From the NCBI GenBank assembly GCA_016931115.1, contig JAFGFM010000037.1, forward strand, positions 27 to 64,026: a stretch of DNA of 64,000 bases. Reading direction: 5' to 3'. Each line of letters begins with the position of its first letter. Within the stretch, counting starts at the first letter, position 1. A program made the position numbers and the translations under genes. This DNA is from Deltaproteobacteria bacterium (lineage in GTDB: Bacteria > Desulfobacterota > DSM-4660 > Desulfatiglandales > HGW-15). Of this stretch, positions 7,147-50,264 are shown in pieces. The notes under the pieces were generated by a model. That model did not search any database, had not been told where the DNA came from, and saw only the letters and a list, made by a program, of their open reading frames with translations.

Positions 7147-7323
7147 GATTTTTCCTCCGGTGTAAAGAAGATCGAAGGATAATAAAAACGAAGGATTTTC
7201 ACAAGGAAAAACTGCTTTACCTTCCTTGACATAAAAGAGGGGCTATTATAGATTTTAGAGGTCTAACCAATTACAAGTCGAATTTTGAACTTACTTCTCC
7301 AGCAGGTTATCCGGGAGGCTATA

Positions 7324-8475
7324 ATGGGTCGTATCATACGTTGGCTGTTGGTTGTTATCATCCTTTCAGGAATCGGATATGCAATATACTATTATTCATT
7401 GCCTGAACCTATAAAGGTCATGCTCGTAAAGGTTGAGAAAGGGGCTGTTGAAAACAGCGTTGCAAACACAAGGGCCGGCACCATAAACGCATGCAGGCGA
7501 ACAAAACTATCTCCCAGCATTGGAGGTCAGATATCCATTCTTCCTGTAAAAGAGGGGCAGAGGGTTAAAAAGGATGATCTCCTTATTGAACTCTGGAACA
7601 AAGACCTTATTGCTGAGCTCAATCACACAAAAAATGAGGTTAATGCAGCAAAATCCAGGGCAACCGCTGCCTGTCTGCAGGCTGATGTATCTGAAAGGGA
7701 GGCAAACAGGATAAGGGAGCTTAAGAAGATAGGTGCTGCATCAGAAGAGCAGACAGACAGGGCAGTGACACAGGCAAAGGCATTGCAGGCAGACTGTGAT
7801 GCAGCAAAGGCATCCGCCCTTATGAGCGAATCAAGGATAAAGGTGGTGGAGGCCAACCTTGAGCGAACACGCCTTTATGCACCCTTTGATGGTGTAATAG
7901 CAGAGGTGACTGGTGAGTTGAACGAATATCTCACACCGTCTCCTCCGGGCATACCCACCCCACCTGCTGTTGATCTGATAGATGACACATGTTTTTATGT
8001 AACAGCGCCTATAGACGAGGTGGATGCCCCAAAGGTTCAGACAGGGCTAACAGCAAGGATAACACTTGATGCATTCAGGGGCAGGTCATTCCCCGGCGTG
8101 GTTTCCAGGATAGCCCCCTATGTTATGGACAGGGAGAAACAGGCAAGGACTGTGGATGTTGATGTAAGGTTCAGGGATGCTGAGGTTATTAACGAAATGC
8201 TTGCAGGCTACAGCGCTGATGTAGAGATAATCCTTGATTCAAGGGCTGACACACTCCGCATACCCACAGAGGCACTGCTGGATGGGAAAAGGGTTTTTGT
8301 TTATGAAGAATCAGACAGGGTTATAAGGGAGAAAATAATAGAAAAAGGGATTGCCAACTGGGCATATACAGAGGTTATTTCAGGGCTCACAGAGGGGGAC
8401 AATGTAGTTGTTAATGTTGATGTGGCGGGTGTCAAAGATGGTGCAGCAGCAGAGATAATTAAAGAGGAAGAATGA
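7324..8475 (+). CDS. HlyD/MacA-family periplasmic adaptor of an ABC exporter
   Basis: N-terminal membrane anchor, coiled-coil and barrel-sandwich pattern. I prefer the ATG at 7324 (GGGAGG 6 nt upstream) over the TTG at 7285 used by the track. Confidence 0.8.
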   Translation: MGRIIRWLLVVIILSGIGYAIYYYSLPEPIKVMLVKVEKGAVENSVANTRAGTINACRRTKLSPSIGGQISILPVKEGQRVKKDDLLIELWNKDLIAELNHTKNEVNAAKSRATAACLQADVSEREANRIRELKKIGAASEEQTDRAVTQAKALQADCDAAKASALMSESRIKVVEANLERTRLYAPFDGVIAEVTGELNEYLTPSPPGIPTPPAVDLIDDTCFYVTAPIDEVDAPKVQTGLTARITLDAFRGRSFPGVVSRIAPYVMDREKQARTVDVDVRFRDAEVINEMLAGYSADVEIILDSRADTLRIPTEALLDGKRVFVYEESDRVIREKIIEKGIANWAYTEVISGLTEGDNVVVNVDVAGVKDGAAAEIIKEEE

Positions 8476-9150: not shown

Positions 9151-10356
9151 ATGAGAATACCGGATATCTTTTTATTCAGCTTCAAGGCCTCTTCAGGGCA
9201 TAAAACCAGGACAATCCTCATGCTGATTGCCATGTCCATAGGTGTGGCCTCGGTAATAATCTTTACCTCGTTAGGCGAGGGGGCAAAAAATTATGTCACA
9301 AGGGAGTTTTCATCACTTGGGACAAACCTCCTGATCATACTGCCGGGCAGGTCAGAGACAACCGGAGGTCCACCGCCCCTTCTGGGCCAGAACCCCAGGG
9401 ACCTTACCCTTGAGGATGCCATTGCCCTTACAAAGAGTTCTCATATCAGATATGTCGCACCCATAACAGTCGGTTCAGCGCCTGTATCTTATGGAGAAAA
9501 AGAGAGGGAGGTTATCATACTTGGCTCCACACCCAATATCTTTGAGGTAAGACAGCTTTCAACCGCGCAGGGAGAATTTCTGCCAGAGGGAGATCCCTCA
9601 AAAGGGGCCGCAATGTGTGTTATAGGCCATAAGCTTAAAAAGGAACTCTTCGGAAATATAACACCGCTGGGTGAGTGGGTGCGCATAGGTGACAGAAGGT
9701 TCAGGATTATTGGCGTTTTAGCAAAAAAGGGGCAGTCCCTGGGTATGGACATGAGTGATGTTGTAATCATACCTGTAGCATCTGCTCAGGCGCTTTTTAA
9801 TACATCGGCCCTTTTCAGGGTCATGGTTCAGGCAAGCGGGAATAAATCCATAGAAAAGGCAAAGGAGAGCATCATAAGGATCATCCGTGAAAGACATGAT
9901 AATGAGGATGATATCACAATCATAACGCAGGATGCCCTTCTTTCCACCTTTGACAGGATACTTACAACCCTTACCCTGAGTATAGCCGGTGTGGCCGCCA
10001 TAAGCCTTCTTGTTGCTGGGATACTTATCATGAACGTGATGCTGATAGCAGTTTCACAGAGGAGATCAGAGATCGGGCTGTTAAAATCCATAGGGGCAAC
10101 GAACAGCCAGGTGCTCGGGCTGTTTCTTGTGGAATCTGCCCTGTTATCATTTACCGGGGCCTTGCTTGGCATTATTGTCTCTTTCATTGTCATCTGGGTC
10201 TTTATGCGCATGGTGCCTGCATTTCCTGTAACTATTCCTGTATGGGGCGTTTCAGCCGCAGTCGGAATAGCGCTCTCTGCGGGGATAGTATTTGGTATAA
10301 TGCCGGCAAGACGTGCATCTATGCTTAATCCAGTTGATGCGTTATCAAGGAGGTAG
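9151..10356 (+). CDS. ABC transporter permease (FtsX/MacB periplasmic-domain type)
   Basis: 401 aa with an N-terminal TM helix, a large periplasmic domain and a C-terminal FtsX-like 3-TM bundle. Confidence 0.85.
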   Translation: MRIPDIFLFSFKASSGHKTRTILMLIAMSIGVASVIIFTSLGEGAKNYVTREFSSLGTNLLIILPGRSETTGGPPPLLGQNPRDLTLEDAIALTKSSHIRYVAPITVGSAPVSYGEKEREVIILGSTPNIFEVRQLSTAQGEFLPEGDPSKGAAMCVIGHKLKKELFGNITPLGEWVRIGDRRFRIIGVLAKKGQSLGMDMSDVVIIPVASAQALFNTSALFRVMVQASGNKSIEKAKESIIRIIRERHDNEDDITIITQDALLSTFDRILTTLTLSIAGVAAISLLVAGILIMNVMLIAVSQRRSEIGLLKSIGATNSQVLGLFLVESALLSFTGALLGIIVSFIVIWVFMRMVPAFPVTIPVWGVSAAVGIALSAGIVFGIMPARRASMLNPVDALSRR

Positions 10357-10360
10357 GCGG

Positions 10361-11560
10361 TTGTATATAAAGGATTCCATAATGCTTTCATTGGGGGCGC
10401 TTAAAGACCAGCGGATGAGGAGCTTCTTGACTGCTATGGGTATTGCAGTGGGTATTGCCTCAGTAGTGCTTCTTACATCCCTTGGGGAGGGGCTGCACAG
10501 GTTTGTCATGGCCGAATTTACACAATTCGGGACCAATATAATTGCAGTCAACCCCGGCAAGACAGAGACAATCGGTATGGCAGGTGCAATCATCAACAAT
10601 GTGCGTCCTCTTACTATGGAAGATGCCCTTTCACTTGAAACTGTTCCAAAGGTCGAAGGGGTGATCCCCTTTGTCCAGGGCAATGCCCCGGTTGAATATG
10701 AAGGCAGGATCAGGCATACAAATCTCTTTGGTGTTGGGCCAAAGGTGCCGGAGGTCTGGAGAATAGGGGTGGCTGTCGGGAGATTCCTGCCTGATGATGA
10801 TCCAAGGACGCCCAGGGCCTTTGTGGCCATTGGCAGCAAGGTAAGAACAGAGCTCTTCGGGGATATAAACCCTTTAGGTAAAAAGGTAAGAATCGGCGGC
10901 GAGCGTTATATTGTTTCAGGGGTAATGGAGCCCAAAGGGCAGATGCTTGGGTTTGATCTTGATGATGCCGTGTACATACCAACGCGCAGGGCGCTCGCCA
11001 TGTATAACCGTGACAGCCTTATGGAGATAGATCTTCTATATAAGGAGGGAAGTGATCCTGACAAAATAGTAAAGGATATAAAAAAGATGCTGATAGCAAG
11101 GCACGGGTCTGAGGATTTCACCCTGACAACGCAGGAGCAGATGATGAAGGTGCTCGGGTCAATACTGAATGTGCTGACAATAGCTGTAGGCGCCCTTGGA
11201 GGCATCTCCCTTGTTGTAGGTGGTGTGGGCATACTTACAATTATGACTATTGCAGTACATGAAAGGACAACAGAGATAGGGCTGTTAAGGGCAATCGGGG
11301 CCGGCAGGTGGCAGATACTTGCGGTTTTTCTTGGTGAGGCTGTTGCGCTTTCCGGCCTTGGGGGGCTTGCAGGCCTGATAATGGGCACTGCTGGTGCTGT
11401 GCTTATAAACCTGTTTGTGCCTGCCATGCATACCCATACCCCCTGGACATATGTGCTGCTCTCAGAGCTTACCGCAGTGCTCATAGGCCTTATGGCAGGT
11501 GTGTTGCCTGCAAGGCATGCGGCCATGCTTGACCCCATAGAGGCATTGCGGGCGGAATAA
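10361..11560 (+). CDS. ABC transporter permease (FtsX-like), second paralogue
   Basis: Same architecture as the previous gene. I place the start at TTG 10361, 7 nt after AGGAGG (10348-10353), which gives an N-terminus parallel to the paralogue. Confidence 0.8.
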   Translation: MYIKDSIMLSLGALKDQRMRSFLTAMGIAVGIASVVLLTSLGEGLHRFVMAEFTQFGTNIIAVNPGKTETIGMAGAIINNVRPLTMEDALSLETVPKVEGVIPFVQGNAPVEYEGRIRHTNLFGVGPKVPEVWRIGVAVGRFLPDDDPRTPRAFVAIGSKVRTELFGDINPLGKKVRIGGERYIVSGVMEPKGQMLGFDLDDAVYIPTRRALAMYNRDSLMEIDLLYKEGSDPDKIVKDIKKMLIARHGSEDFTLTTQEQMMKVLGSILNVLTIAVGALGGISLVVGGVGILTIMTIAVHERTTEIGLLRAIGAGRWQILAVFLGEAVALSGLGGLAGLIMGTAGAVLINLFVPAMHTHTPWTYVLLSELTAVLIGLMAGVLPARHAAMLDPIEALRAE

Positions 11561-26105: not shown

Positions 26106-26179
26106 GGGCGATTAGCTCAGATGGATAGAGCGCTGGCCTCCGGAGCCAAAGGCCGTGGGTTCGAATCCCGCATCGCCCA
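26106..26179 (+). tRNA. tRNA-Arg (anticodon CCG)
   Basis: I folded it by hand as a 74-nt cloverleaf. Acceptor GGGCGAT/ATCGCCC, D arm GCTC..GAGC, anticodon loop CTCCGGA (CCG), T arm GTGGG-TTCGAAT-CCCGC, discriminator A. No CCA is encoded. Confidence 0.9.
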
Positions 26180-26434
26180 TACCTTTTTAAAAATAACAGG
26201 CGTGGCCTCGGGGTCATCTGCGGCAAAGGGCCAGTAATTTTTAAACATATTATATGTTGTTTTTCCCAGCAACAGTGTATCTGAAGAGCGTAATCGTTCT
26301 GCATTATAATTATCAAAGCTTTCATCAGATGGATATGCAACCCTGCGGTAATCAAACAATGCCATAATATTTTTGTCAGCCCCTTCATAGAATCCATCCA
26401 GCGATATTATGTTACAGACAATTATTTTTCGCAT
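26180..26434 (-). pseudogene. 5' fragment of a RibD_C / dihydrofolate-reductase-family gene, truncated at the tRNA
   Basis: MRKIIVCNIISLDGFYEG...DTLLLGKTTYNMFKNYWP.. matches the first ~85 residues of ~180-aa RibD_C proteins. The rest of the track ORF (26117-26179) is antisense translation of the tRNA. Confidence 0.65.
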
Positions 26435-26453
26435 TGTTTTCTCCTTAAGAGAC

Positions 26454-26509
26454 TATAACCATTAACAGCCTTTATCTTACGGTGGCCATTAATTTAAAGC
26501 CACTTATAA
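26454..26509 (-). repeat. attC-like imperfect palindrome (candidate E1)
   Basis: Read on the minus strand it ends in GGTTATAG, 20 nt before ATG 26434. It has an inner stem GTGGC/GCCAC and overlaps the last codons of the upstream ORF. This is the weakest of the set. Confidence 0.2.
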
Positions 26510-26883
26510 CTTAAATCCAAATGATAGCTCCATTCCCCCTCACCAAGGGCTTCAATCACAATTCCTGGTTTTGACCAAGCACCATTTTCACTGACATAGC
26601 AAGATTGATATATAACTTTGCAGTTAATAAAACGACTTGAAACAATATTAACTGTGACATTACAGCTCTTTCCATTCTTTGATTTATATTGGTATACATG
26701 ATTCGAATGAAGCCAATCTCCACTACCATCATTGCGATAGTCTGTATCAGTAATAATTTTTCTACATTCTAAACCACTTGCACAGCTACAAGAATCTTCA
26801 CTTGTTAAAACTTTTGATAAAACATATGTAGAAAAACACAAGCCCATAAATATAAAGAATAGGATAAATTTAACTCGTTTCAT
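26494..26883 (-). CDS. Secreted Cys-rich protein (hypothetical)
   Basis: 129 aa with a clear signal peptide (MKRVKFILFFIFMGLCFSTYVLS) and 8 Cys in the mature part. SD AAGGAG upstream. Confidence 0.6.
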   Translation of the reverse strand: MKRVKFILFFIFMGLCFSTYVLSKVLTSEDSCSCASGLECRKIITDTDYRNDGSGDWLHSNHVYQYKSKNGKSCNVTVNIVSSRFINCKVIYQSCYVSENGAWSKPGIVIEALGEGEWSYHLDLSYKWL

Positions 26884-26958
26884 TGCTATCTCCTTTTTAA
26901 AATGGATTGTTCAGGAGTCTCCATATAAAAATAATATTGCGCTCAAAACCTTTCTAAT

Positions 26959-27044
26959 ATTAAACCACTTACTGCGCGGGTCGATCAGCATTACAGACCG
27001 ATCAGCTTTGTATCATCTTGTTCTTGTAGATGCAGAGGTTGTGC
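26959..27044 (-). repeat. attC-like imperfect palindrome (candidate E6)
   Basis: On the minus strand a GCACAACC box sits 13 nt after the TAA at 27058-27060. A direct repeat CGATCAGC x2 and a GGTC/GACC pair are internal, and the terminal box is GGTTTAAT. Confidence 0.25.
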
Positions 27045-27057
27045 AATATTCCTTACA

Positions 27058-27606
27058 TTAACGCTTATTTGGTAATACATAGTTCAACTCATTTTTTGGC
27101 AACCCTTTAACAATATGACGGAGAGGCATACCATAAAGATCTGCAAAAACCTGAAATGCCTCACCGGCTATTGAGCATTTTCTTGTTGACCAGCCAATCG
27201 CTACCCGTTCATATAGTTATGAAACATTAGGATTCATACCTTCACCCATAGCGTATGACCCACCGCTTTTTCTTATTTGAGAGCATAATTCCACCACAAT
27301 CGCCGCAGCTACACCACTGCCACGATATTCCGGCTTCACGTATAACCACTCAAGAACACCACCAAACTGGCCCCAAAACATATCATATTGACGCGTCCAT
27401 TGTCCCATCCCCAGAATAACGCTTTTTCTTTCAGCGATATATAGATGTGCTATAGGAGCCCCGTTAAAATAAGCCTGCTTGAGAGATGATTTATGCCGCT
27501 TCCAGTTTTCTGCAGGATGCCCCTTAACTAATTCATCAATCATACCAGCAATTTCATCAATATCAGATTCAACTGCAACCCTTACAACTAATTTATTTTC
27601 AGACAT
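27058..27606 (-). pseudogene. GNAT N-acetyltransferase interrupted by an in-frame TAA
   Basis: The track ORF (27217-27606, 129 aa) stops inside the C-terminal GNAT motif (..NPNVS*LYERVAIGW..). The same frame stays open for 52 more codons to the TAA at 27058-27060. Confidence 0.6.
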
Positions 27607-27719
27607 TTAATCTCCAATAATTTATGTATCTAATGGATATATTGTTATCCTAATACTGTTTTAATTTTATAAAGCCTTTCTAATATTTCTTCTGAAAGAT
27701 CATATGAAACAGCACTTGG

Positions 27720-27998
27720 TTACTTCCCACTATTGAAACCAATGTCAGCGATTCGTTTATCAGTTTGTAAATAAAGGTTTAGAAATTTTGGAGCAAGATT
27801 CTCGATTAATTCACAAAAATGTCTAATTGTATCTTCTGGCCTATCATAATGGCCTGGGCCGCTAAGTGAAACCCGGTATTTATTTTCAACCCATCGGTTG
27901 AGCTGAAGGACCATCTCCTTTTTCAATTCCTTTACCAGTTCAGTTAGGTCTTCGCTGGATTCAATTTCAAAATCTGTTGTTATGTATTCAATATCCAT
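27720..27998 (-). CDS. Hypothetical 92-aa acidic protein
   Basis: Intact ORF co-oriented with its neighbours. I recognise no family. Confidence 0.45.
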   Translation of the reverse strand: MDIEYITTDFEIESSEDLTELVKELKKEMVLQLNRWVENKYRVSLSGPGHYDRPEDTIRHFCELIENLAPKFLNLYLQTDKRIADIGFNSGK

Positions 27999-28028
27999 TT
28001 TAAAATTACCGATGCGGATCAGGCGCAG

Positions 28029-28514
28029 CTATTTAATATTGTCCGTATCCGGCCTGTTTTGTGATTGTTTGCTCTCCGGTTTCTTGATGGTTATCGACTC
28101 GCCGTTTATTCCAGCGTAGAACACGAGAATCTCTGCTGGCTCATCACCCTCGTTCTTTCCATAATGCTATGTATCCACAACCTCAACTATTGGATCATCT
28201 GCTTTCAGATGTAACACTTGACCACTCTCCGTAGTGACAGTTAGTTGGCCTTTGAGAAGAACACCTGCATTGATAACTGGATGCGTGTGCATCGGAAGAT
28301 TACACCCATGTGGAATCGTGATTTTCAGAATCGTGACCTCTGGCGTACCTGTCTTGTATGCCGGCAACGGATTACCATTCCAGCTTTCGGTCGACTTTAC
28401 CAACTGAACTGATCGCACATCATTAACATATTTCGATGATTCGCAACCCGCAACCAGGATGATAGACAATAAACAGCATGCTAATTTCTTCATTCTCGTT
28501 TCGTCTTTACACAT
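28029..28514 (-). pseudogene. Lipoprotein cupin interrupted by an in-frame TAG
   Basis: Lipobox LVAGC and cupin motif PMHTHPVINAGVLLKGQL. The TAG at 28167-28169 lies where I expect Trp (..[24 protein letters not shown]..), and the frame continues 45 codons to the TAG at 28029-28031. Confidence 0.65.
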
Positions 28515-28517
28515 GTG

Positions 28518-28573
28518 CTGATAACCGGTTTAACAAGCTTTTTGCGAAATCCGGCTGATTATAGGGTTAGCAG
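28518..28573 (-). repeat. attC-like imperfect palindrome (candidate E2) filling a whole intergenic spacer
   Basis: The terminal boxes 28518-28526 (CTGATAACC) and 28565-28573 (GGTTAGCAG) are complementary at 8 of 9 positions, with an inner CCGG..CCGG stem. The element spans the gap between stop 28575 and start 28514. Confidence 0.35.
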
Positions 28574-28574
28574 T

Positions 28575-29072
28575 TCATTTTATCTGAAATAAATTAAGCC
28601 TTTTAACTGTTTTTTGTAAAGTATACTCTACTTCCAATTCATAATGTTTTATTTCATAAAAATCTATTATTTCACTATCGTCAGTATCACTCTTTTTCGG
28701 CATACCCAGCAACTCATTAATTTCACTTTTAGCTGTTGTTTTTTTTACTTGAAGTGCTTTTGCATCAGGTGCGATAAGTTTTACTACTGTTGTATCAAAC
28801 GGTGTGTATTCATCTTTTTGTATTGCAATAGCAAAATACCCAATTACCCCATCATAAATTTCAATTAAACATCCCAGAGCATCATATTGAAATGAGTTGT
28901 CCCGAAATGGATTTTTATTATTTGGTTTACCGAAGCTCATAAGTGTTTCGAGTTTATCTCCAATTTTAATCTGATTAAGACGAAAATCCCTCAAATCAAG
29001 TGTCAGGGGCATTCTCTTCCATTGCGGCCAGGATTTACTAGGATCTTTATTAAAAATATTAAATATACCCAT
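28575..29072 (-). CDS. Hypothetical 165-aa protein (very AT-rich)
   Basis: Intact ORF with no recognisable family. Its composition is strongly atypical for the window. Confidence 0.5.
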   Translation of the reverse strand: MGIFNIFNKDPSKSWPQWKRMPLTLDLRDFRLNQIKIGDKLETLMSFGKPNNKNPFRDNSFQYDALGCLIEIYDGVIGYFAIAIQKDEYTPFDTTVVKLIAPDAKALQVKKTTAKSEINELLGMPKKSDTDDSEIIDFYEIKHYELEVEYTLQKTVKRLNLFQIK

Positions 29073-29083
29073 AATTTTCTACC

Positions 29084-29138
29084 CATAACCAACCTGGCGT
29101 GGTGTTTAGCCAGCTCTGCGTTTATTAGATTGTTGTGC
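29084..29138 (-). repeat. attC-like imperfect palindrome (candidate E3)
   Basis: On the minus strand a GCACAAC box sits 3 nt after the TAA at 29142-29144. The inner stem is CTGGC-N10-GCCAG (29094-29113), and the terminal GGTTATGG box lies 10 nt before ATG 29072. Confidence 0.3.
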
Positions 29139-29141
29139 GAT

Positions 29142-29276
29142 TTATATGAAGTATTCTTTATGTGCCTTGATGTATTCCATATTTAATGCATTTAAGTCTT
29201 CTTCATATTCATTAATATCCAGCTTTTTTTCAGGGACAATTTCTTTTTTCCCAAATATCTTTTTGAATATATTCAT
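29142..29276 (-). CDS. Possible 44-aa ORF (MNIFKKIFGKKEIVPEKK..)
   Basis: Found by my own translation; it is below the track's size cut-off. It is co-oriented with the islet genes but has no convincing SD. Confidence 0.2.
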   Translation of the reverse strand: MNIFKKIFGKKEIVPEKKLDINEYEEDLNALNMEYIKAHKEYFI

Positions 29277-29700
29277 AGTACGTTCCCTTTCATTACAAAA
29301 AATGAAAAACCAAAAACCGATATTTTTGGATAAGCACTAACTAATTATTATTTAAAGGAAATCTAATATTGAAGCAAAAGGATAATACTCAACTAAAAAA
29401 TAATTATCAAATTTAAAAGCAGTATCTTTGATAAAATCTCAGTGCACAGGATGAAAGGGGCACAGGTCCGCCTTCGCTGAATGCTACACCGGGACAAGCG
29501 GGGAATGGCAAAAACAATGAACATCGAACATCGAATGAAAAAACAGATCCCTGTGGCGGTCAATAAACAATTGGAACCGGCAAATTTCTTGCTATTTATG
29601 CCCCCTTTGATATAAAAATTGGATATTTTTAAAATGCGTACTGCAAAACCCATAAGGCTTATGTTAGACCAGCCTGTATAAGTTATTTGAGGGAAAAATT

Positions 29701-30792
29701 ATGAAAAGACTCACAACAGAAAAGATAGACAGACTTATCCCCTATCCGCCGGGAAAGCCCATAGAGGAGCTTGAAAGGGAACTTGGGATTACCGGTTCCA
29801 TCAAGCTTGCATCAAATGAAAACCCTATCGGGCCATCACCTATGGCTTTAAAGGCAATCATGGATAACCTTAACAGGCTTAACAGGTATCCTGATGGAAG
29901 TAGTTATTATCTTAAGGAAAAATTATCAAAGGTGTTTAACCTCCCCATGGAAAGGATACTGGTCGGAAACGGGTCAAACGAGCTGATTGAGCTTGCAATC
30001 AGGACATTCCTTACCCCCGGTGAAGAGGTTATACAGGCATTGCCTACCTTTCTTGTGTATGAGAAGGTGGTTAATGGCGCAGGTGGAGAGCTTGTCTCAG
30101 TTGACCTTAAGGATTTCCGGATTGACCTCGATGCAGTTAAAAGGGCCATAACCCCCAAAACAAAACTGATTTTTATAAATAACCCCAATAATCCCACAGG
30201 CACAGGGCTCTCAAAAGAGGAGTTAGAGGATTTTATAAAATCTGTTCCGAAGGATATTGTTATTGTTCTGGATGAGGCGTATATTGAGTTTTCTTCAGAC
30301 AGGGTCGCAAAAGGGACCGATTTTCTGGATAAACACAATAGGCTCATAATCTTAAGGACATTTTCAAAGCTTTACGGGCTTGCAGGCTTAAGGATAGGCT
30401 ACGGCTTCTCTTCACCGGAGATCGTGGATTACATAAACAGGGTGAGACAGCCCTTTAATTCAAACCTGCTCGCCCAGGCCGCTGCTGTAGCAGCCCTTGA
30501 TGACACGGAGTTTGTTAATAAAACACTCACCCTGGTTAATGAAGGGCTCAAATACCTGTATAAAAGACTGGATGAGATGGGGCTTTCATACATACCTACT
30601 GAGACCAACTTTTTTCTGATAAAGGTGCCTTCAGGCGCTAAAAATATCTACCAGCTGATGCTCAGAGAAGGGGTAATAATACGCTCCATGGAGAGCTACG
30701 GACTTAAGGATCATATAAGGGTCAATGTGGGGCTCCCCGAAGAAAATGAGAGATTTATAAATACCCTGAAAAAGGCCATTAGAAGCCTTTAA
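29701..30792 (+). CDS. hisC: Histidinol-phosphate aminotransferase
   Basis: 363 aa with LASNENP near the N-terminus and the PLP-lysine motif FSKLYGLAGLRIGY. Confidence 0.9.
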   Translation: MKRLTTEKIDRLIPYPPGKPIEELERELGITGSIKLASNENPIGPSPMALKAIMDNLNRLNRYPDGSSYYLKEKLSKVFNLPMERILVGNGSNELIELAIRTFLTPGEEVIQALPTFLVYEKVVNGAGGELVSVDLKDFRIDLDAVKRAITPKTKLIFINNPNNPTGTGLSKEELEDFIKSVPKDIVIVLDEAYIEFSSDRVAKGTDFLDKHNRLIILRTFSKLYGLAGLRIGYGFSSPEIVDYINRVRQPFNSNLLAQAAAVAALDDTEFVNKTLTLVNEGLKYLYKRLDEMGLSYIPTETNFFLIKVPSGAKNIYQLMLREGVIIRSMESYGLKDHIRVNVGLPEENERFINTLKKAIRSL

Positions 30793-30814
30793 GAACTTGA
30801 AACAGGATAATAAT

Positions 30815-31486
30815 ATGAAACAGCCTGTAATAACAATCGATGGCCCGGCAGGGGCGGGAAAAAGCACTGTAAGCCGAACCTTAGCAAAAAGATTGAACCT
30901 TGTGTACCTTGATACAGGGGCAATGTACAGGGCGGTTGCGCTCCAGGCAACAAGGGAGAACATACCATTTTCAGATGGTAATGCCCTTTATATGATGTGC
31001 GAAAACATAGATATCCACTTTAAGGCTAATGGCGATAAATCTGCTATTTTCATAGATAATGATGATGTTTCAGCACAAATAAGAATGGCTGAGATGGACA
31101 TGCTATCATCATCGGTCTCTGCGGTTCCAGAGGTAAGAAAGGCCATGACCGCTCTTCAGCGTAAAATCGGTGAAAAGGGCGGCATTGTTGCAGAGGGGAG
31201 GGATATGGGCACAGTGGTATTTCCTGATGCTGATTTTAAATTTTTTGTTACTGCCTCCCCGGAGGTGCGCGCTAAAAGACGCTATGATGAAAGAAAGGCC
31301 AGGAATGAAGATATCGACATTAATAACGTTGAGGCTGATATCAGAAAACGTGACGAGCAGGATCAGTCAAGGAAACTCGCCCCATTAAAACCGGCAGATG
31401 ACGCCATTTTGATAGATACCTCGGGGATGGAGATAGAGAGGGTTATAGAGGTAATACTTGGTCATATAAAAGGCGATCATTTGTGA
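30815..31486 (+). CDS. cmk: Cytidylate kinase
   Basis: ITIDGPAGAGKST P-loop and full-length Cmk pattern. I prefer ATG 30815 over TTG 30797. Confidence 0.9.
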   Translation: MKQPVITIDGPAGAGKSTVSRTLAKRLNLVYLDTGAMYRAVALQATRENIPFSDGNALYMMCENIDIHFKANGDKSAIFIDNDDVSAQIRMAEMDMLSSSVSAVPEVRKAMTALQRKIGEKGGIVAEGRDMGTVVFPDADFKFFVTASPEVRAKRRYDERKARNEDIDINNVEADIRKRDEQDQSRKLAPLKPADDAILIDTSGMEIERVIEVILGHIKGDHL

Positions 31487-41129: not shown

Positions 41130-41642
41130 TTATTCGTCTACTCGCTTTAATGCTTCATCAAGTATCTGCCTGGATAAATAAAGCCCGGCATTTAGAAGTT
41201 CCTCTATAACTGGTCTTGCTTTTGGTATTAAACCCCTTTTTTTGGCAACCAATATCATGCCCAGTGTGCCACGCACTGGAATATTTAAAAGGGCAGCACA
41301 TCTACGCCCGTTTAGATCATCAATAATTGCTTCTATCCCAGGGTTCATGTAAGAATATGCAAGAACAGACGATTCGCCAGAGCCAAGTGCCCACTCTGTA
41401 ATGATCTCTGGAGTTGGGGGTGGAGTTATGATTTCAATCCATGAGGTGTCTTTAAGGGTTTTCGCGGTAATATCTTTAGCCCCTCGCATCCTGATCTCAT
41501 TAGCTACAGGTTCAGGAACGAGGATATGACCTGTTAATTGATGCAGCAACTCCATTTTTTGCCCACGGCTGAAAAATATAAGTGGAGAGGCATTTATGAT
41601 ATATGAATTATCCAAGAGATAGCTCTTTGTCCAGATCATCAA
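41130..41642 (-). CDS. PIN-like nuclease toxin (DUF3368 family)
   Basis: ..IINASPLIFFSRGQKMELLHQL..ILVPEPVANEI.. fits DUF3368. The start could instead be TTG 41615, which gives an 8-nt overlap with the antitoxin stop. Confidence 0.7.
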   Translation of the reverse strand: MMIWTKSYLLDNSYIINASPLIFFSRGQKMELLHQLTGHILVPEPVANEIRMRGAKDITAKTLKDTSWIEIITPPPTPEIITEWALGSGESSVLAYSYMNPGIEAIIDDLNGRRCAALLNIPVRGTLGMILVAKKRGLIPKARPVIEELLNAGLYLSRQILDEALKRVDE

Positions 41643-41859
41643 AATCTATTTGAAAAGAATTTTTGCCCATTTTTGCCAGTGACAGCAGAAAATCGGTACG
41701 TGACAAACCGGCTATTCGCGCTCCTACCTCCTGGCTTACCTTCCCCTGTTCATACCATGAAGCAGCAGCGGCAAGTCTCATTTCTTTTTTAAACTCATCT
41801 GGACTTATCCTCAAAGCGGAAAATACTTTTTCTGGGACATCCATGTTCAATGTCGGCAT
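41608..41859 (-). CDS. UPF0175-family antitoxin
   Basis: 83 aa. ..AASWYEQGKVSQEVGARIAGLSRTDFLLSLAKMG.. is the UPF0175 HTH pattern. It lies upstream of the PIN gene and overlaps it. Confidence 0.7.
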   Translation of the reverse strand: MPTLNMDVPEKVFSALRISPDEFKKEMRLAAAASWYEQGKVSQEVGARIAGLSRTDFLLSLAKMGKNSFQIDFDDLDKELSLG

Positions 41860-41884
41860 AAATATACTCCTTTATTATTTGGCT

Positions 41885-41914
41885 ATATTAGCAGAAATGG
41901 TAATAAATGGACAA
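41885..41914 (-). promoter_or_regulatory. Candidate promoter of the UPF0175/PIN module (TTGTCC-18-TAATAT)
   Basis: The -35 box is at 41909-41914 and the -10 box at 41885-41890 on the minus strand, 25 nt before the SD and ATG. Confidence 0.4.
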
Positions 41915-42180
41915 GAATTTATCAAAAATAATTACTTGGAGCATTCTCTCATCTTGTTTCTAGACAAGGTATAAAACTTTTAGCATATCAAATTTCCGTA
42001 TTGATAGAGTCTTTGCTAAAAAGCATTTCCAGAATAATACCTGAAAATAAGTATAGTAAAGATTTTCTTTGGAAAAGTGTTAAAGGAGCATACACTCTTA
42101 AATCAGATGAAGAAGCGAAAAAAATGGCTGCTGAGATATACCCAGAAACATATAAAGCAATGAAAGCCAGACAAAAATAA
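41897..42180 (+). pseudogene. Possible frameshifted small gene remnant
   Basis: The ATG at 41897 opens a 25-codon frame that ends at 41974. A different reading frame is open from 41932 to the TAA at 42178-42180 (..GIKLLAYQISVLIESLLKSISRIIPENKYSKDFLWKSVKG..) but has no start codon. Confidence 0.25.
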
Positions 42181-42200
42181 ACTCTTAATCAAATACATCA

Positions 42201-42269
42201 CATAACAAATAGCTACACCAGATCCAAGAGGGTTCCTTGCTTGATATGAAAATCATGGCGGGGCTTATG
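42201..42269 (+). repeat. attC-like element (candidate E4), VCR-like left half
   Basis: CATAACAAATAGCTACACCAGATCCAAGAGGG...GGCGGGGCTTATG, starting 20 nt after the remnant ORF stop. L''/L'-like segments GCTACACCAGAT and ATCATGGCGGGGC pair partially. Confidence 0.35.
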
Positions 42270-42398
42270 AGCAAACGGAGTACCGGGGTCGCGTCTTGAC
42301 ATTGGACATTTCTCGAAAATCTTCCTCCACCTAAAAAAAAACAGAGTATGAACCATATAAAAAATAATAGATACCATTGAAAAGGATAATTAGATTAT

Positions 42399-44273
42399 CT
42401 ATCGCTCCTTCAGATAATCATGAATCTCATCATACCTTAAATCATTTTTATCTTTAATAAACGGTATGAGCATAGCCCTGTGGCCGCTACCCATGATCAA
42501 TAACGCACGTTCGCCCGGTTCAACAGTCTTCATTATATTGGCCAGTATATAAAGGTTTCTTTTATACCATGTCTCTGTAAATTCCACGCCGGGGTTTGAT
42601 TCTTCATCCCCCATTTCAAGTATGGTTCCCAGGTACATGCTCCTGTTCCACCTATCACTCTCATCAGTGTTCATCTTAGTCAGGCAATCAAGTATAGTGA
42701 GGGTTTCCAGACCTTTACTTTCCTTTGCTGCAAACGCCTGAACATCCGCGATATATTTATCCAGTTTTTCTTTTTGTCCATGAGTCTCAGCAAATGCCTG
42801 CAATCTTTCAAATGGGAGGTCAAGCCTGTGATCAACCCCATATATCTTTTTATACCCCAGACGTTCTGCAAGCCTGAACCCGAGCTGATGGATTTCATTT
42901 GCAGCCAGTTCGAAATCACCATCCAGGAATTTCCGGTAATCTTTGTTCAACTGCTCATTTTCGTTGTAAGGATATTCAACTAAAATCTTATCGGGTTTGT
43001 ATTTTTCAAGACGAACCAGCACCTCTTCTATCTCTTTTTGTCTTCTTTCTCCTAACATCCCATCAACCTTCATGGATGCAGCATCACCTGGAGAACCTGC
43101 AAAATGAAAAACACCAAGAATAGCAATACTGGCAGGGTTGCGGTTATCAGCCTTACTTTGAACGGAGAGAGCAGCTTGTTCAAATATACTGACCAGTTCC
43201 GGGAATATTGCAGGGAATGCAGGGTATTTCTCCCTTGATGATTCATACTCCTTTAGTTTCAGATACAGTTTTTCTACATATGGGTAGCCCGATTTTATCT
43301 CTCTTTCGAGTGTGTCATTGCCTACCTTTTCACCTAAGACTGTATAAGCAAAGTAGGCGGTGACAGCACGTACAATATGTTCACTCACCCACTCATGAGC
43401 ATAGACATCAAATGTGGCTTTACCTGAGGAGAGAATCTTTTCCTTCATGCCGGGGTTAAGCGCATCTACCACAGGAGATAACCTGTCCATATACTGTTCC
43501 GTAAGGTGATTAATATATGAATGGCTGAATTCATGCCACACTAACCTTCTGAAATTATTTTCATCACCAAATGTAAATTTACCGTTTGAGTATCCCCACG
43601 GCCCGCACAGGTTATAAATGTCATACTTATCATCTTCATAAGCGATCCTTGGGCCGAAACCTCCGGGATGAAAGAATGGGGCAACAATAATCGTATAACT
43701 GTTCTGCGGATAACCATAGAACTCTTCCAGATCATGGATATAATCATGGCTACCCATGACTGCACGGTAATCAGCAAGTATCTCATTGTACTGGGCCTCA
43801 TGCGCCCTGAAAAAGGTCATAAAATCGGTATCACGCGCAAAATCCCTGAGTGAATCGATAAACATCTCCAGTTGCGCCATTCCTCCTGCCCTCTCAATAA
43901 TAAATTCAGAGACAGGGCGTATCTGTTTCAGCTCCGGAGGTTCAGAATAAGACAGGATTGCCTCAGGCGGCTGGCCGTACCAGAATCCCTCTGCACTCAT
44001 TTTATCAAACATCTTTACAGCAGGATGATTCCTGTATTGTGAGAATTGTTGTATTACCTCCTGCTTATAAGGGAAATCAAACCTGGTAAGAACCGGTTGT
44101 CCATTGAACCCGGTATAATCACTCAGATACATAACAACCGAAAGTAGTTCTATGCGGGGATCAACCTTAACTGTCATTCGACCGGTTGAGTTATTTTCAA
44201 GGGCGGAAGCATTTAAACCAACCTGAAAAATAAACAACAGTAAAACAAATAGTAAAAATCTGTATCTTACCAT
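42399..44273 (-). CDS. Secreted DUF4932-like (HEFSH zincin motif) and DUF5694/TraB-ChaN-like fusion protein
   Basis: 624 aa with a signal peptide, HExxH (WHEFSHSYINH) in the N-terminal half, and a C-terminal half (ILGVFHFAG..KPDKILVEY..MGSGH) resembling the TraB/Tiki/ChaN superfamily. Family names are from memory. Confidence 0.5.
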   Translation of the reverse strand: MVRYRFLLFVLLLFIFQVGLNASALENNSTGRMTVKVDPRIELLSVVMYLSDYTGFNGQPVLTRFDFPYKQEVIQQFSQYRNHPAVKMFDKMSAEGFWYGQPPEAILSYSEPPELKQIRPVSEFIIERAGGMAQLEMFIDSLRDFARDTDFMTFFRAHEAQYNEILADYRAVMGSHDYIHDLEEFYGYPQNSYTIIVAPFFHPGGFGPRIAYEDDKYDIYNLCGPWGYSNGKFTFGDENNFRRLVWHEFSHSYINHLTEQYMDRLSPVVDALNPGMKEKILSSGKATFDVYAHEWVSEHIVRAVTAYFAYTVLGEKVGNDTLEREIKSGYPYVEKLYLKLKEYESSREKYPAFPAIFPELVSIFEQAALSVQSKADNRNPASIAILGVFHFAGSPGDAASMKVDGMLGERRQKEIEEVLVRLEKYKPDKILVEYPYNENEQLNKDYRKFLDGDFELAANEIHQLGFRLAERLGYKKIYGVDHRLDLPFERLQAFAETHGQKEKLDKYIADVQAFAAKESKGLETLTILDCLTKMNTDESDRWNRSMYLGTILEMGDEESNPGVEFTETWYKRNLYILANIMKTVEPGERALLIMGSGHRAMLIPFIKDKNDLRYDEIHDYLKER

Positions 44274-44380
44274 TTAAGAGCTCCATTTAAATAATATCTG
44301 GTCTGCATATTTTAAAAGCTTTTATCCTGTGAAAGACCTGATATAACCTTTCTTAATGACCTAAAATATAAACCTGTGGA

Positions 44381-44432
44381 CATAACTTCTGCCTGTATCA
44401 GCATTATCTGTGCCAGAATAAAATATGTTATC
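44381..44432. repeat. attC-like imperfect palindrome (candidate E5)
   Basis: ATAAC (44382-44386) pairs with GTTAT (44427-44431), and TTCTG (44387-44391) pairs with CAGAA (44414-44418). It sits about 105 nt upstream of the 42399-44273 gene. Confidence 0.3.
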
Positions 44433-44676
44433 AAATACAATGAGTTGATTAATTTAAAGGAAAATATAGAAAGAGGTATCTGGAATTTTGAACCAATAAC
44501 TGGTTTTTAAAACCATTTCATAAACAAATAGAAGTAGCATGTCTTAAATATGCCAGCAGAACAAGACGCTTTTACATGTTCATCCTCGTCATATATGCTA
44601 TGGCGGGACAAAAAAACACACCGAATACATGAAAAAGGATATGAAAAAAATTTCGTGTATTTCGTGTGTTTCGTGG

Positions 44677-44958
44677 TTATGACTGAGTTCTTTCTTCTTC
44701 CACCCTCTCATGAAGCCACATGGACATCAACTGGGTAGGAGGAAGCCCTTTTTTTCGGGCAAATCTTTTTATCATTGAAATATCATAGGGATCAATGCGT
44801 AATGATACTGGCTCGCGAGGTGGTCTTACCGCCTTAAACAGTTTAGCTTCACTAAGAAGTTGTTCAGTCTTTTGAGGGTCTTCAAGGCTTATCTCTTTAT
44901 CCAGTTTTTCAGCCTCTTTTTTAAGTTCCTTTAATAGTTTGACAGGCAATTTGCTCAT
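44677..44958 (-). CDS. brnA: BrnA-like antitoxin (CopG/RHH-type C-terminus)
   Basis: 93 aa, downstream of the DUF497 gene with a 4-nt overlap. The C-terminus ..ISMIKRFARKKGLPPTQLMSMWLHERV.. is typical of BrnA. Confidence 0.65.
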   Translation of the reverse strand: MSKLPVKLLKELKKEAEKLDKEISLEDPQKTEQLLSEAKLFKAVRPPREPVSLRIDPYDISMIKRFARKKGLPPTQLMSMWLHERVEEERTQS

Positions 44959-45275
44959 TTTTTAATCCTTTTCAGATATGCTTTTTGTGTCCCTGAAGAC
45001 ATTGGAAAAGCTGTTACACAACGCCATACCCCATAATCAGGATAAGGAGCGATAATTGATTCAATAAATAAACCCGATGCATCTGTTCCCCAAAGTCTGA
45101 ACCTGTATTCTTGAGATTTATTCCCCTTTTTCTTATTTTTTACAGCAAGAGTTGGAAGAGGGCCTTCATTATAATAAACTTCCTCAACCTGTTCGGGAGT
45201 TAACCCATGCAATGCAATATGATCAATATTATTTTCATCCCAGTCGGGTATAAGATTTTTATCAGGTTTCAACAT
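44955..45275 (-). CDS. brnT: BrnT-like (DUF497) ribonuclease toxin
   Basis: 106 aa. ..WDENNIDHIALHGLTPEQVEEV.. fits the DUF497 N-terminal motif, and the toxin-first gene order matches brnTA. Confidence 0.6.
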   Translation of the reverse strand: MLKPDKNLIPDWDENNIDHIALHGLTPEQVEEVYYNEGPLPTLAVKNKKKGNKSQEYRFRLWGTDASGLFIESIIAPYPDYGVWRCVTAFPMSSGTQKAYLKRIKK

Positions 45276-45281
45276 GGCAAA

Positions 45282-45310
45282 ATAGTAGCGTAATTTATTA
45301 ATTACGTCAA
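45282..45310 (-). promoter_or_regulatory. brnTA promoter (TTGACG-17-TACTAT) with an embedded inverted repeat; apparently leaderless
   Basis: The -35 box is at 45305-45310 and the -10 box at 45282-45287. The inverted repeat CGTAAT-N6-ATTACG (45289-45306) lies in the spacer. Only 6 nt separate the -10 box from ATG 45275, and there is no SD. Confidence 0.5.
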
Positions 45311-45517
45311 GATACGGATATTAACACTATTTATCTTTTTACAAATGCTCTTTGAGTTGTTTGATTTATGAGAAATAGCTTTTTATAATATGGTAACTCA
45401 TCTATAACTCCCGGTTTTTATTAATATTGAATTAATATGTTTTTGATTTTTTTTTGATGATAGGGTAGTTTATACGCTCTATTATAAGCTGTCACATTTG
45501 CACAAGGAGATGAGCTG

Positions 45518-45682
45518 ATGTTCGAATTTACGCGGATGATGAGACTTCCGCCATATGTTTTTGCCGAGGTAAACACCCTCAAGATGCAACTCAGGCACAA
45601 GGGTGAAGATATTATTGATCTTGGCATTGGGAACACCCAGAGGACAAAACAGGCTATCAGGGGCATAAAACAGGTTTTATAA
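45518..45682 (+). pseudogene. N-terminal remnant of a class I/II aminotransferase (AlaA/AspC-like)
   Basis: [39 protein letters not shown] matches aminotransferase N-termini. After about 38 residues the similarity is lost, and a TAA stop follows at 45680-45682. SD AAGGAGA at 45504-45510. Confidence 0.6.
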
Positions 45683-45713
45683 ACCCTGTTCAATATTAAA
45701 CGGAGATAAAAAA

Positions 45714-50111: not shown

Positions 50112-50264
50112 CTGTGTAACAATATCAATACGTTATATCTTTTTAACACAATTAAATTGACACCACTAGTGCCTCTCAATTAAGATTTACCAATTCCGAA
50201 CTTCGATAATGTCCGGGCATAATAAATTCTTTTAAAATCAACAAGATATAGACGGAGGGCATCA

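Follow-up and report, generated by a model that had tools for sequence, protein, structure and literature searches.

What is the origin of the low-GC islet that lies directly beside a tRNA gene in the 64-kb stretch of DNA analysed here (the window), and is it, as an earlier note on the same sequence had suggested, an array of integron gene cassettes? The nearest genomes to the window are uncultured Desulfatiglans metagenome-assembled genomes (MAGs), and the islet (islet 1, 26184-29578) comprises 3.4 kb with minus-strand open reading frames (ORFs) and 37-38% GC, compared with ~45% in its flanks. The note had read it as a possible CALIN, a cluster of attC sites lacking the integron integrase, which is defined operationally by the presence of two or more attC sites with E ≤ 1 (Cury et al., 2016, PMC4889954). 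We propose that islet 1 is probably the eroded remnant of an integron gene-cassette array beside tRNA-Arg in a Desulfatiglans-like genome, and because five of its seven ORFs are broken and no integrase gene (intI) is present in the 64 kb, it is best termed a fossil CALIN.

Cassette Units Shared With Other Arrays

The strongest evidence comes from orf165 (28575..29072, minus strand), an intact cassette ORF with no assigned function. Proteins 78-92% identical to its product are encoded on a handful of other contigs, always within a run of small co-oriented ORFs. At the DNA level the orf165 unit is 84-91% identical in four other contexts (loci L087, L088 and L090-L093), and the identity always extends over the same interval, 29080 to 28564-28566. 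It starts 8 nt before the ATG, at a point preceded by G|TTAGCAG in L088, L090 and L091, and it ends 2 nt past the stop codon at AC-TGCTAAC, so that the unit spans G|TTAGCAG to its exact complement CTGCTAAC. Such ends, GTTAGCA and the complementary TGCTAAC, are just what would be expected of a circularisable cassette. The box 2 nt past the stop is TGCTAAC in L087 and L088, TGCCAAC in L089 and TCCTAAC in L090 and L091. In L088 orf165 lies between two attC sites recognized by covariance model R3 (see below), at 2188-2236 (26.2 bits) and 2744-2814 (19.9 bits), and in L091 it is followed by one at 2394-2466 (31.8 bits). L088 also carries, 6.5 kb from the cassette run and on the same strand, a fragment of an integron integrase (10312-10740; TIGR02249 at 152 bits over 141 amino acids (aa) versus XerC at 59 bits), which is interrupted by an in-frame stop within the conserved STQNQA motif and runs off the end of the locus retrieved.

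The second unit is that of a GNAT acetyltransferase pseudogene (27058..27606, minus strand; identified by Pfam). One intact homologue sits in L094, a co-oriented array of 11 ORFs in a Desulfatiglans MAG, and the window and L094 can be aligned for ~70-80 nt past the GNAT stop codon; the box GCACAAC stands 13 nt past that stop in both L094 and L095. The orf165 and GNAT units are thus both of the kind expected in a cassette array, namely an ORF plus attC, bounded at G|TT, that recurs in other arrays, and on sequence comparison the two genes are integron cassettes. The remaining ORFs of the islet are likely also cassette-derived, judging from their layout and from the DMP19 and cupin cassettes held in common with L089. 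The latter is the same locus in a close relative (Logan SRR8925804, an independent assembly from another sample, with an aminotransferase gene 94% identical to that in the window), and it shares both the aminotransferase-to-array junction and array DNA that is 90-92% identical. The reading given in the earlier note therefore holds as to the kind of element, since the orf165 and GNAT homologues lie in arrays with canonical attC sites, one of which has an integrase fragment, while the present status of the islet as a CALIN does not hold.

Three of the six junctions between the islet genes retain recognizable parts of attC sites, all on the minus strand. The eroded attC of the GNAT gene (junction 5, 26976..27044) is the most complete. 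Where the L094 GNAT attC reads GCACAAC-CGATA-CAT-C-TAT...ATA-ATG-CAGCAC-GTAATTT, junction 5 reads GCACAAC-CTCTG-CAT-C-TAC...GTA-ATG-CTGATC-GACCCGC, with the inverse core R'' at 27038-27044, the spacer CTCTG, L'' CAT-C-TAC at 27026-27032 and L' GTA-ATG at 26989-26994. The pairing of the L boxes is preserved by a compensatory double change, TAT/ATA to TAC/GTA. There is no GT(T/A) core, and GACCCGC stands at the place expected for the core R' (26976-26982). Overall the site is 67% identical to its L094 counterpart, a value reached by 5 of 300 shuffles, and it gave no model match in the searches of the whole window or of the islet only.

Junction 1 (29083..29138) is a probable eroded attC that has R'' GCACAAC at 29132-29138 and scores 7.3, 9.7 and 7.7 bits with models R1, R2 and R3, respectively. 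Its interior does not pair as L boxes and the proper R' and L' are lost; by homology, R' is represented by the decayed GGTAGAAAATT where other arrays have GTTAGCAGAAAATT. Its identity to the attC downstream of a toxin ORF in L087 is 65% (8 of 300 shuffles reach this value), the toxin being one that we take, by eye, to be RelE/YafQ-like. In L089 a 7-nt deletion removes the GCACAAC of this junction. Junction 2 (28519..28572) is an atypical or eroded attC with R'' TGCTAAC at 28566-28572, which is exactly complementary to the GTTAGCA that opens the cassette in other arrays, and R' GTTATCA at 28519-28525. A canonical attC, L094 591-659, which R3 scores at 31.1 bits, has the same two boxes. The 3' L box and the spacer are absent, and the same layout is seen in L087 and L089 at 75-80% identity. 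In an alternative parse of junction 2, CTGCTAACC/GGTTATCAG would form the L box and R'' would lie inside the end of the ORF; this fits L087-L089 and does not fit L088 or the window. The L''/L' pair is therefore kept only at junction 5, and junctions 1 and 2 keep R boxes only.

These comparisons bear directly on the motifs that the earlier note had drawn. Its RYYYAAC-like boxes after the stop codons are real relics of R'', as they occupy the same place in homologous cassettes elsewhere. Among the terminal GGTTAT/GGTTTA boxes proposed as cores, GTTATCA at 28519-28525 is borne out by its identity to the R' of L094 591-659, and most of the others are not. In particular, GGTTAT at 29085 and 26455 and GGTTTA at 26961 have no support as cores; homology puts R' at GGTAGAAAATT in junction 1 and would put it at 26976-26982 in the GNAT junction.

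Covariance Models and attC Searches

Three surrogate attC covariance models, R1, R2 and R3, were built from real sites; they are not the curated model of IntegronFinder and follow the scheme of Cury et al. (PMC4889954), in which the R-UCS-L blocks (UCS, unpaired central spacer) form the consensus and the variable middle is treated as a gap. The aadA1 attC (found at 100% identity in >1900 plasmids) provided the class-1 arrays L081-L085 as a training source, and the Vibrio cholerae repeat (VCR; matched at 98% identity) provided the Vibrio superintegron-type array L086. Model R1 was built from 9 short class-1 sites and scores held-out class-1 sites at 19-38 bits and VCRs at only 7-17 bits; being too narrow, it was not relied on for the negative outcome that it gave with the window. 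Model R2 contains 19 sites (13 class-1 and 6 VCRs) and scores real sites mostly at 26-66 bits, including VCRs on which it was not trained, with one newly found site at 13.6 bits and the VEB attC missed. In the Desulfatiglans-type arrays R2 identified a textbook attC in L090 (1544-1621; 37 bits, and 37.9 with R3) and another in L088 (3361-3420; 20 bits, R'' GCACAAC). As it missed several real attCs in such arrays, its negative result was not taken as decisive, and R3 was built from the R2 set plus 8 Desulfatiglans-type sites (27 sites). For both R2 and R3 the long sites were trimmed to 28+28 nt, and one N was put in the 3' spacer of sites having a 5-nt spacer (arr-3, the VCRs and four Desulfatiglans-type sites) so that the alignment stayed in register. 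In 68 kb of related arrays R3 gave 12 matches of at least 15 bits, four of them held out of training, versus only two (21.9 and 15 bits) in ordinary loci of 80 relatives that total 1.09 Mb. Hence R3 is specific, and attCs are ~100-fold enriched in the related arrays relative to ordinary loci. Across the models real attCs score mostly 15-66 bits, with 13.6 bits as the lowest counted.

When these models are applied to the window, no junction of islet 1 passes. With R2 and filters off there are three matches at E ≤ 10 over the whole window, at 50114-50138, at 7261-7312 and at junction 1, the last (29083-29138, minus strand) being the best islet match at 9.7 bits and E 6.9, and consisting of the terminal 7-mers only. 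R3 gave no islet match at E ≤ 10 in the whole-window search. If the search is confined to the islet, R3 places junction 2 (28519-28572) first at 8.3 bits and E 0.79 and junction 1 second at 7.7 bits and E 1.1, again through the terminal boxes only. Both matches are on the coding strand and fill post-stop spacers, as ~2% of random placements would. With R2 and R3 the islet does not contain at least two attCs within 4 kb at E ≤ 1, and under the operational definition, as tested with these surrogate models, it does not qualify as the CALIN that the earlier note had proposed.

Motifs and Folding of the Spacers

The sequence elements described in that note are almost all where it had placed them. 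GCACAAC is found at 29132-29138 and 27038-27044, CTGGC-N10-GCCAG at 29094-29113, CCGG..CCGG at 28525-28554, and GGTTAT at 29085-29090, 28521-28526 and 26455-26460, and 28518-28526 is complementary to 28565-28573 at eight of nine positions. The TGCTAAC box is likewise present, 1 nt away from the 28567-28573 originally given, at 28566-28572. What could not be sustained from the window alone is that the spacers have one shared layout, as the sharing of k-mers is at the level expected by chance. A single 6-mer (GGTTAT) occurs in at least three of the six spacers, where dinucleotide shuffles average 0.73 and 48% of them reach one, and six 7-mers occur in at least two of the six, compared with 5.2 after shuffling, where 41% reach six. 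A search for a repeat family linking the islet junctions yielded none. In addition, junctions 3 and 4 are only 30 and 38 nt long, which leaves no room for an attC.

Folding leads to a similar result. The four spacers singled out in the earlier note fold no better than shuffled sequences on either strand, with minimum free energies (MFEs) of -3.5 to -8.6 kcal/mol and z-scores of -1.5 to +0.9. The bottom strands of junctions 1, 2 and 5 give -4.1, -5.1 and -4.3 kcal/mol (z 0.07, -0.6 and +0.6), versus -13 to -33 kcal/mol (z -1.4 to -5.6) and end-to-end hairpins for 13 class-1 and VCR attCs, and -9.5 to -20 kcal/mol (z -2.2 to -4.2) for most Desulfatiglans-type attCs. Two sites that we used as real are weaker, namely the orf165 attC of L091 (-7.7 kcal/mol, z -1.0) and L088 2188 (-4.2 kcal/mol, z -0.4). 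The islet junctions do not show the attC fold, in which a stable bottom-strand hairpin combines an R''/R' helix, an unpaired central spacer and an L''/L' helix that carries extrahelical bases. The four elements thus do not form attC hairpins, and the internal palindromes drawn within them are not attC stems. Junction 6 (26435..26493, minus strand) has a short imperfect hairpin past the orf129 stop codon and contains the GGTTAT at 26455-26460; its MFE is -5.5 kcal/mol (z -1.5), the overlapping model match reaches only 7.3 bits, and no homologous context was found for it in other arrays.

Setting and Gene Content of the Islet

Islet 1 begins a few bases past the 3' end of tRNA-Arg(CCG) (26106..26179, plus strand; ARAGORN, and Rfam tRNA at 66 bits), which is the sole match of Rfam 15 in the window, with no integron-related family detected. 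The far end is a conserved block at 29579, upstream of a class I/II aminotransferase gene (29701-30792; Pfam Aminotran_1_2) that is presumably hisC-like and for which an exact-protein look-up returned no record. Synteny between the window and the loci of two sister species, L001 and L003, stops at 26183-26194. Their flanks match those of the window, and the gap from the tRNA to the conserved block measures only ~125 bp in L001 and ~530 bp in L003, which is why we regard islet 1 as a lineage-specific insertion in a variable spot. The ~530 bp at this spot in L003 (9345-9876) carry, on the cassette strand, fragments of small ORFs, one of which resembles an addiction-module antitoxin, together with a CTGATAAC...GTTCTTA pair, and may be another cassette relic.

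The minus strand of islet 1 holds seven co-oriented small ORFs of 44-182 codons, separated by spacers of 30-174 nt, with the short 5' leaders typical of a cassette array. No integron integrase lies next to them: tblastn with IntI1 over the 64-kb window gave no match at E ≤ 1e-3, in agreement with the earlier note, which had reported none. A complete integron, with intI, attI and the promoter Pc beside the array, is not seen in the window, where intI is missing and the array borders directly on the sequence upstream of the aminotransferase gene. To our knowledge, attI and Pc of unknown integron classes cannot be defined from sequence alone.

Five of the seven ORFs are pseudogenes or fragments, having been nonsense-mutated, internally deleted or truncated, and only orf165 and orf129 are intact. 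Starting from the aminotransferase side, orf44 (29142..29276, minus strand) is what remains of a DMP19-family cassette gene after the loss of ~370 nt from its interior. The N-terminal part matches L089 7363-7503 and the C-terminal part 7810-7875, and orf44 is recognized as a fused DMP19 remnant because the gene is intact in L089 (7363-7878), where it matches Pfam DMP19. Beyond orf165 is a Cupin_2 lipoprotein pseudogene (28029..28514, minus strand) with an in-frame TAG at 28167-28169. Pfam Cupin_2 is matched across this stop at 9.7e-12 when the TAG is replaced by Trp for the scan, on the assumption that the change was TGG to TAG; the L089 copy has a 220-nt deletion. Translation shows that orf92 (27645..27998, minus strand) is interrupted by an in-frame TAA at 27720-27722, past which the frame is open for 24 further codons, and a Pfam scan gave no match for it. 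In the GNAT gene the TAA at 27217-27219 stands at a conserved Lys (AAA to TAA) that is present in all of the intact 182-aa homologues (84-90% identity). Three consecutive genes, those for the cupin, orf92 and GNAT, therefore each contain a single in-frame stop (TAG, TAA and TAA). Reassignment of stop codons was considered in passing and rejected, given that both TAA and TAG occur and that neighbouring ORFs end with these codons.

The Cys-rich orf129 (26494..26883, minus strand) is intact and has a hydrophobic N-terminus that, judged by eye, is probably a signal peptide; it is an orphan, as a search of 5.8 billion proteins returned only itself and Pfam gave no match. The last ORF is a fragment of a RibD_C-like reductase (26180..26434, minus strand; ~80 of 204 aa), which is cut at the tRNA end of the islet and runs into the tRNA gene. 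A full-length relative of 204 aa is found in L098 (73% identity), and the RibD_C relatives have no flanking DNA in common. Compared with the window, L089 has an extra ORF and a PIN gene, an intact DMP19 gene, the 220-nt deletion in the cupin gene, and different genes further on; the same array has been eroded by different deletions in the two lineages.

The window also contains a second low-GC islet (41130-45693) that encodes on the minus strand a DUF3368 protein, a 624-aa protein with DUF4932 and DUF5694, and a CopG-antitoxin pair; it gave no attC match at E ≤ 10 with R2 or R3.

Alternative Explanations

Several observations weigh against a fossil cassette array. A cassette origin is documented directly for only two of the seven ORFs; orf129 is an orphan, and the cupin gene, orf92 and the RibD_C fragment have not been linked to other arrays. 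When R2 or R3 is run over the whole window, no islet junction reaches E ≤ 1, the matches obtained cover terminal 7-mers only, and sites elsewhere that have nothing to do with the islet (7261-7312 and 50114-50138) score equally well. The surrogate models miss some real sites, among them the VEB and L094 GNAT attCs, and their E-values are rough. The window and L087 remain alike for ~15 nt past the presumed G|TT crossover of junction 2, yet their downstream genes differ. Finally, a place beside a tRNA gene would be expected of an integrase-borne genomic island more than of an integron.

The last point leads to what is the best of the alternatives, although we regard it as unlikely: that islet 1 is the remnant of an element that targeted tRNA-Arg and was unrelated to integrons, in which case the boxes would be fortuitous and the shared genes would reflect generic horizontal transfer. 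It is directly 3' of tRNA-Arg(CCG), has a low GC content and is variable among relatives, its internal motif statistics are at chance level, and it contains no significant attC-model matches. On the other hand, an island of this type would be marked by a tyrosine or serine integrase and a repeat of the 3' end of the tRNA, and neither was found, nor was any other mobility gene; a search of 26216-31000 for direct repeats of at least 9 nt of the tRNA 3' half gave nothing except A/T runs. Moreover, the array has its start on the side of the aminotransferase gene and its end at the tRNA is no more than a truncation, and the orf165 and GNAT units are bounded by R' and R'' and are found elsewhere in attC-rich arrays, where the enrichment of attCs is ~100-fold. 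A reading of the boxes as chance motifs in a tRNA-linked islet, and not as attCs, was dropped in view of the orf165 homologues inside attC-bearing arrays.

It is very unlikely that the islet is instead a CALIN that still functions, with atypical but working attCs that are recombined by an integrase encoded elsewhere in the genome. The R''/R' pairs of junctions 1 and 2 do have the right orientation and spacing and are the top two sub-threshold matches of the islet (E 1.1 and 0.79, respectively), both boxes of junction 2 are those of a canonical L094 attC, its layout has been preserved in three lineages, and integrases act on attCs that differ widely in sequence (Cury et al., 2016, PMC4889954). 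What stands against this is the absence of L boxes and of extrahelical-base geometry, together with bottom strands that fold at -4 to -5 kcal/mol, like shuffled sequences, versus -9.5 to -33 kcal/mol for most real sites. Junctions 1 and 5 lack the R' core, two of the junctions measure only 30-38 nt, and R'' of junction 1 is deleted in L089. That most of the cassette genes are pseudogenes also argues against recent turnover.

An assembly artefact, in which a chimeric join placed unrelated low-GC DNA beside the tRNA, might be suspected from a MAG contig with a sharp drop in GC and is extremely unlikely, as the independent L089 assembly has the same aminotransferase-to-array junction and array DNA 90-92% identical, and the junction on the tRNA side is a clean truncation inside an ORF.

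Proposed History and Relation to Known Systems

We propose the following history for the fossil array. Promoterless cassettes, each consisting of an ORF and an attC, would have been inserted one by one and in a single orientation by an integron integrase, the enzyme that recombines attC as a folded bottom strand, at the G|TT within the R' core. They may have come to lie between the aminotransferase gene and the tRNA by insertion at a secondary site, by rearrangement, or by carriage on an island. In the present state the integrase is absent from the window, the attCs are missing L boxes or the R' core and have ceased to fold, and five of the seven ORFs are broken. The array is now presumably immobile and largely non-functional.

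CALINs and decayed arrays are already well known (PMC4889954; Néron et al., 2022, PMC9024848). Islet 1 resembles a CALIN in its short, co-oriented, cassette-derived ORFs, in the lack of a nearby integrase and in having cassettes unrelated to the clinical resistance cassettes, and its origin by integrase loss, rearrangement or secondary-site insertion is plausible. It differs in that it does not have at least two attCs detectable by the models, and its eroded sites and mostly pseudogenized content mark it as a relic. A feature shared with the sedentary chromosomal integrons, of which the Vibrio superintegron is an example, is the array of small accessory ORFs (GNAT, cupin, toxin-antitoxin and others), and L088, L090 and L094 have attC families specific to an array or a lineage, as is the case for the VCRs. 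The junctions of islet 1, in contrast, have no sequence family in common, and whereas each cassette in the Vibrio-type control L086 is followed by an attC of 126-129 nt that R2 scores at 26-40 bits (one at 13.6), the islet junctions score at the level of noise.

The insertion of cassettes at secondary genomic sites by the integrase, as reported by Loot et al. (bioRxiv 10.1101/2022.09.11.507474), offers a route by which cassettes could come to lie beside housekeeping genes with neither attI nor intI. No insertion-site signature was identified at the ends of islet 1, for which this is a possible origin. Islet 1 shares with tRNA-linked genomic islands its location directly 3' of a tRNA gene, its low GC content and its strain- or species-specific occurrence, and differs from them in having no integrase or att repeat, in its cassette-like organization and in the truncation next to the tRNA.

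Islet 1 illustrates how a cassette array may end, with the integrase gone, the L boxes and R' cores lost, and nonsense mutations and deletions in the genes, and the sister lineage represented by L089 shows the same array decaying by another path. Since relics of this kind are invisible to tools based on attC models and are recovered only by comparison with living arrays, survey counts of cassette-derived DNA may be too low for uncultured anaerobes such as Desulfatiglans.

attC Interiors in the Related Arrays

The related arrays also provide information on how attCs themselves may change. The orf165 unit has sharply conserved ends, R' GTTAGCAG and R'' CTGCTAAC, and across the arrays it carries three mutually unalignable attC interiors. 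One of these belongs to a family that also includes the attCs of two unrelated ORFs, orf179 and the GNAT gene in L094, at 70-72% identity: the interiors of the L088 orf165 attC, the L094 J1 attC and the L094 GNAT attC reach this identity, with 0 of 300 shuffles doing so, in spite of the fact that they follow unrelated ORFs. A second type is formed by junction 2 of the window and its equivalents in L087 and L089 (75-80% identical; 0 of 300 shuffles), and the L091-type interior has no significant similarity to the others (44-59%; 35-243 of 300 shuffles). It is conceivable, and we suggest it only tentatively, that attC interiors are replaced or homogenised within the host array after a cassette arrives, with the exchange bounded by the R boxes. 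If true, this would be a process distinct from the known crossover at G|TT and would bear on how cassettes acquire their attC; orf165 with its several attC types, together with one attC family on unrelated ORFs, constitutes a small data set on the genesis and homogenisation of attCs. The attC family in question, which contains …GACCNGGCGATAAAACGCC…, is seen at L088 2744-2814, L094 591-659 and L094 3877-3945, where it follows three unrelated ORFs.

L090 and L091 part exactly after ...AATCG|, from where L091 goes on with TTATGCAG... into an extra CBAH cassette that has its own attC, and this divergence, as the alignment reads, is a cassette insertion caught in the act. Several otherwise canonical attCs have a GTA rather than a GTT core (GTACGGC, GTACAGC and GTAATTT), namely L090 2973-3037, 3901-3965 and 4619-4684, and L094 3877-3945. 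Finally, L090 contains two copies of a GC-rich and palindrome-rich element of ~185 nt (~680-855 and ~3966-4140), each of which lies between an attC ending in GTACGGC and the start of the next cassette (CGCCGTTAGCAG / CGCCGTTGGGCAG); the element could be a cassette devoid of an ORF, or else a second attC, a long one.

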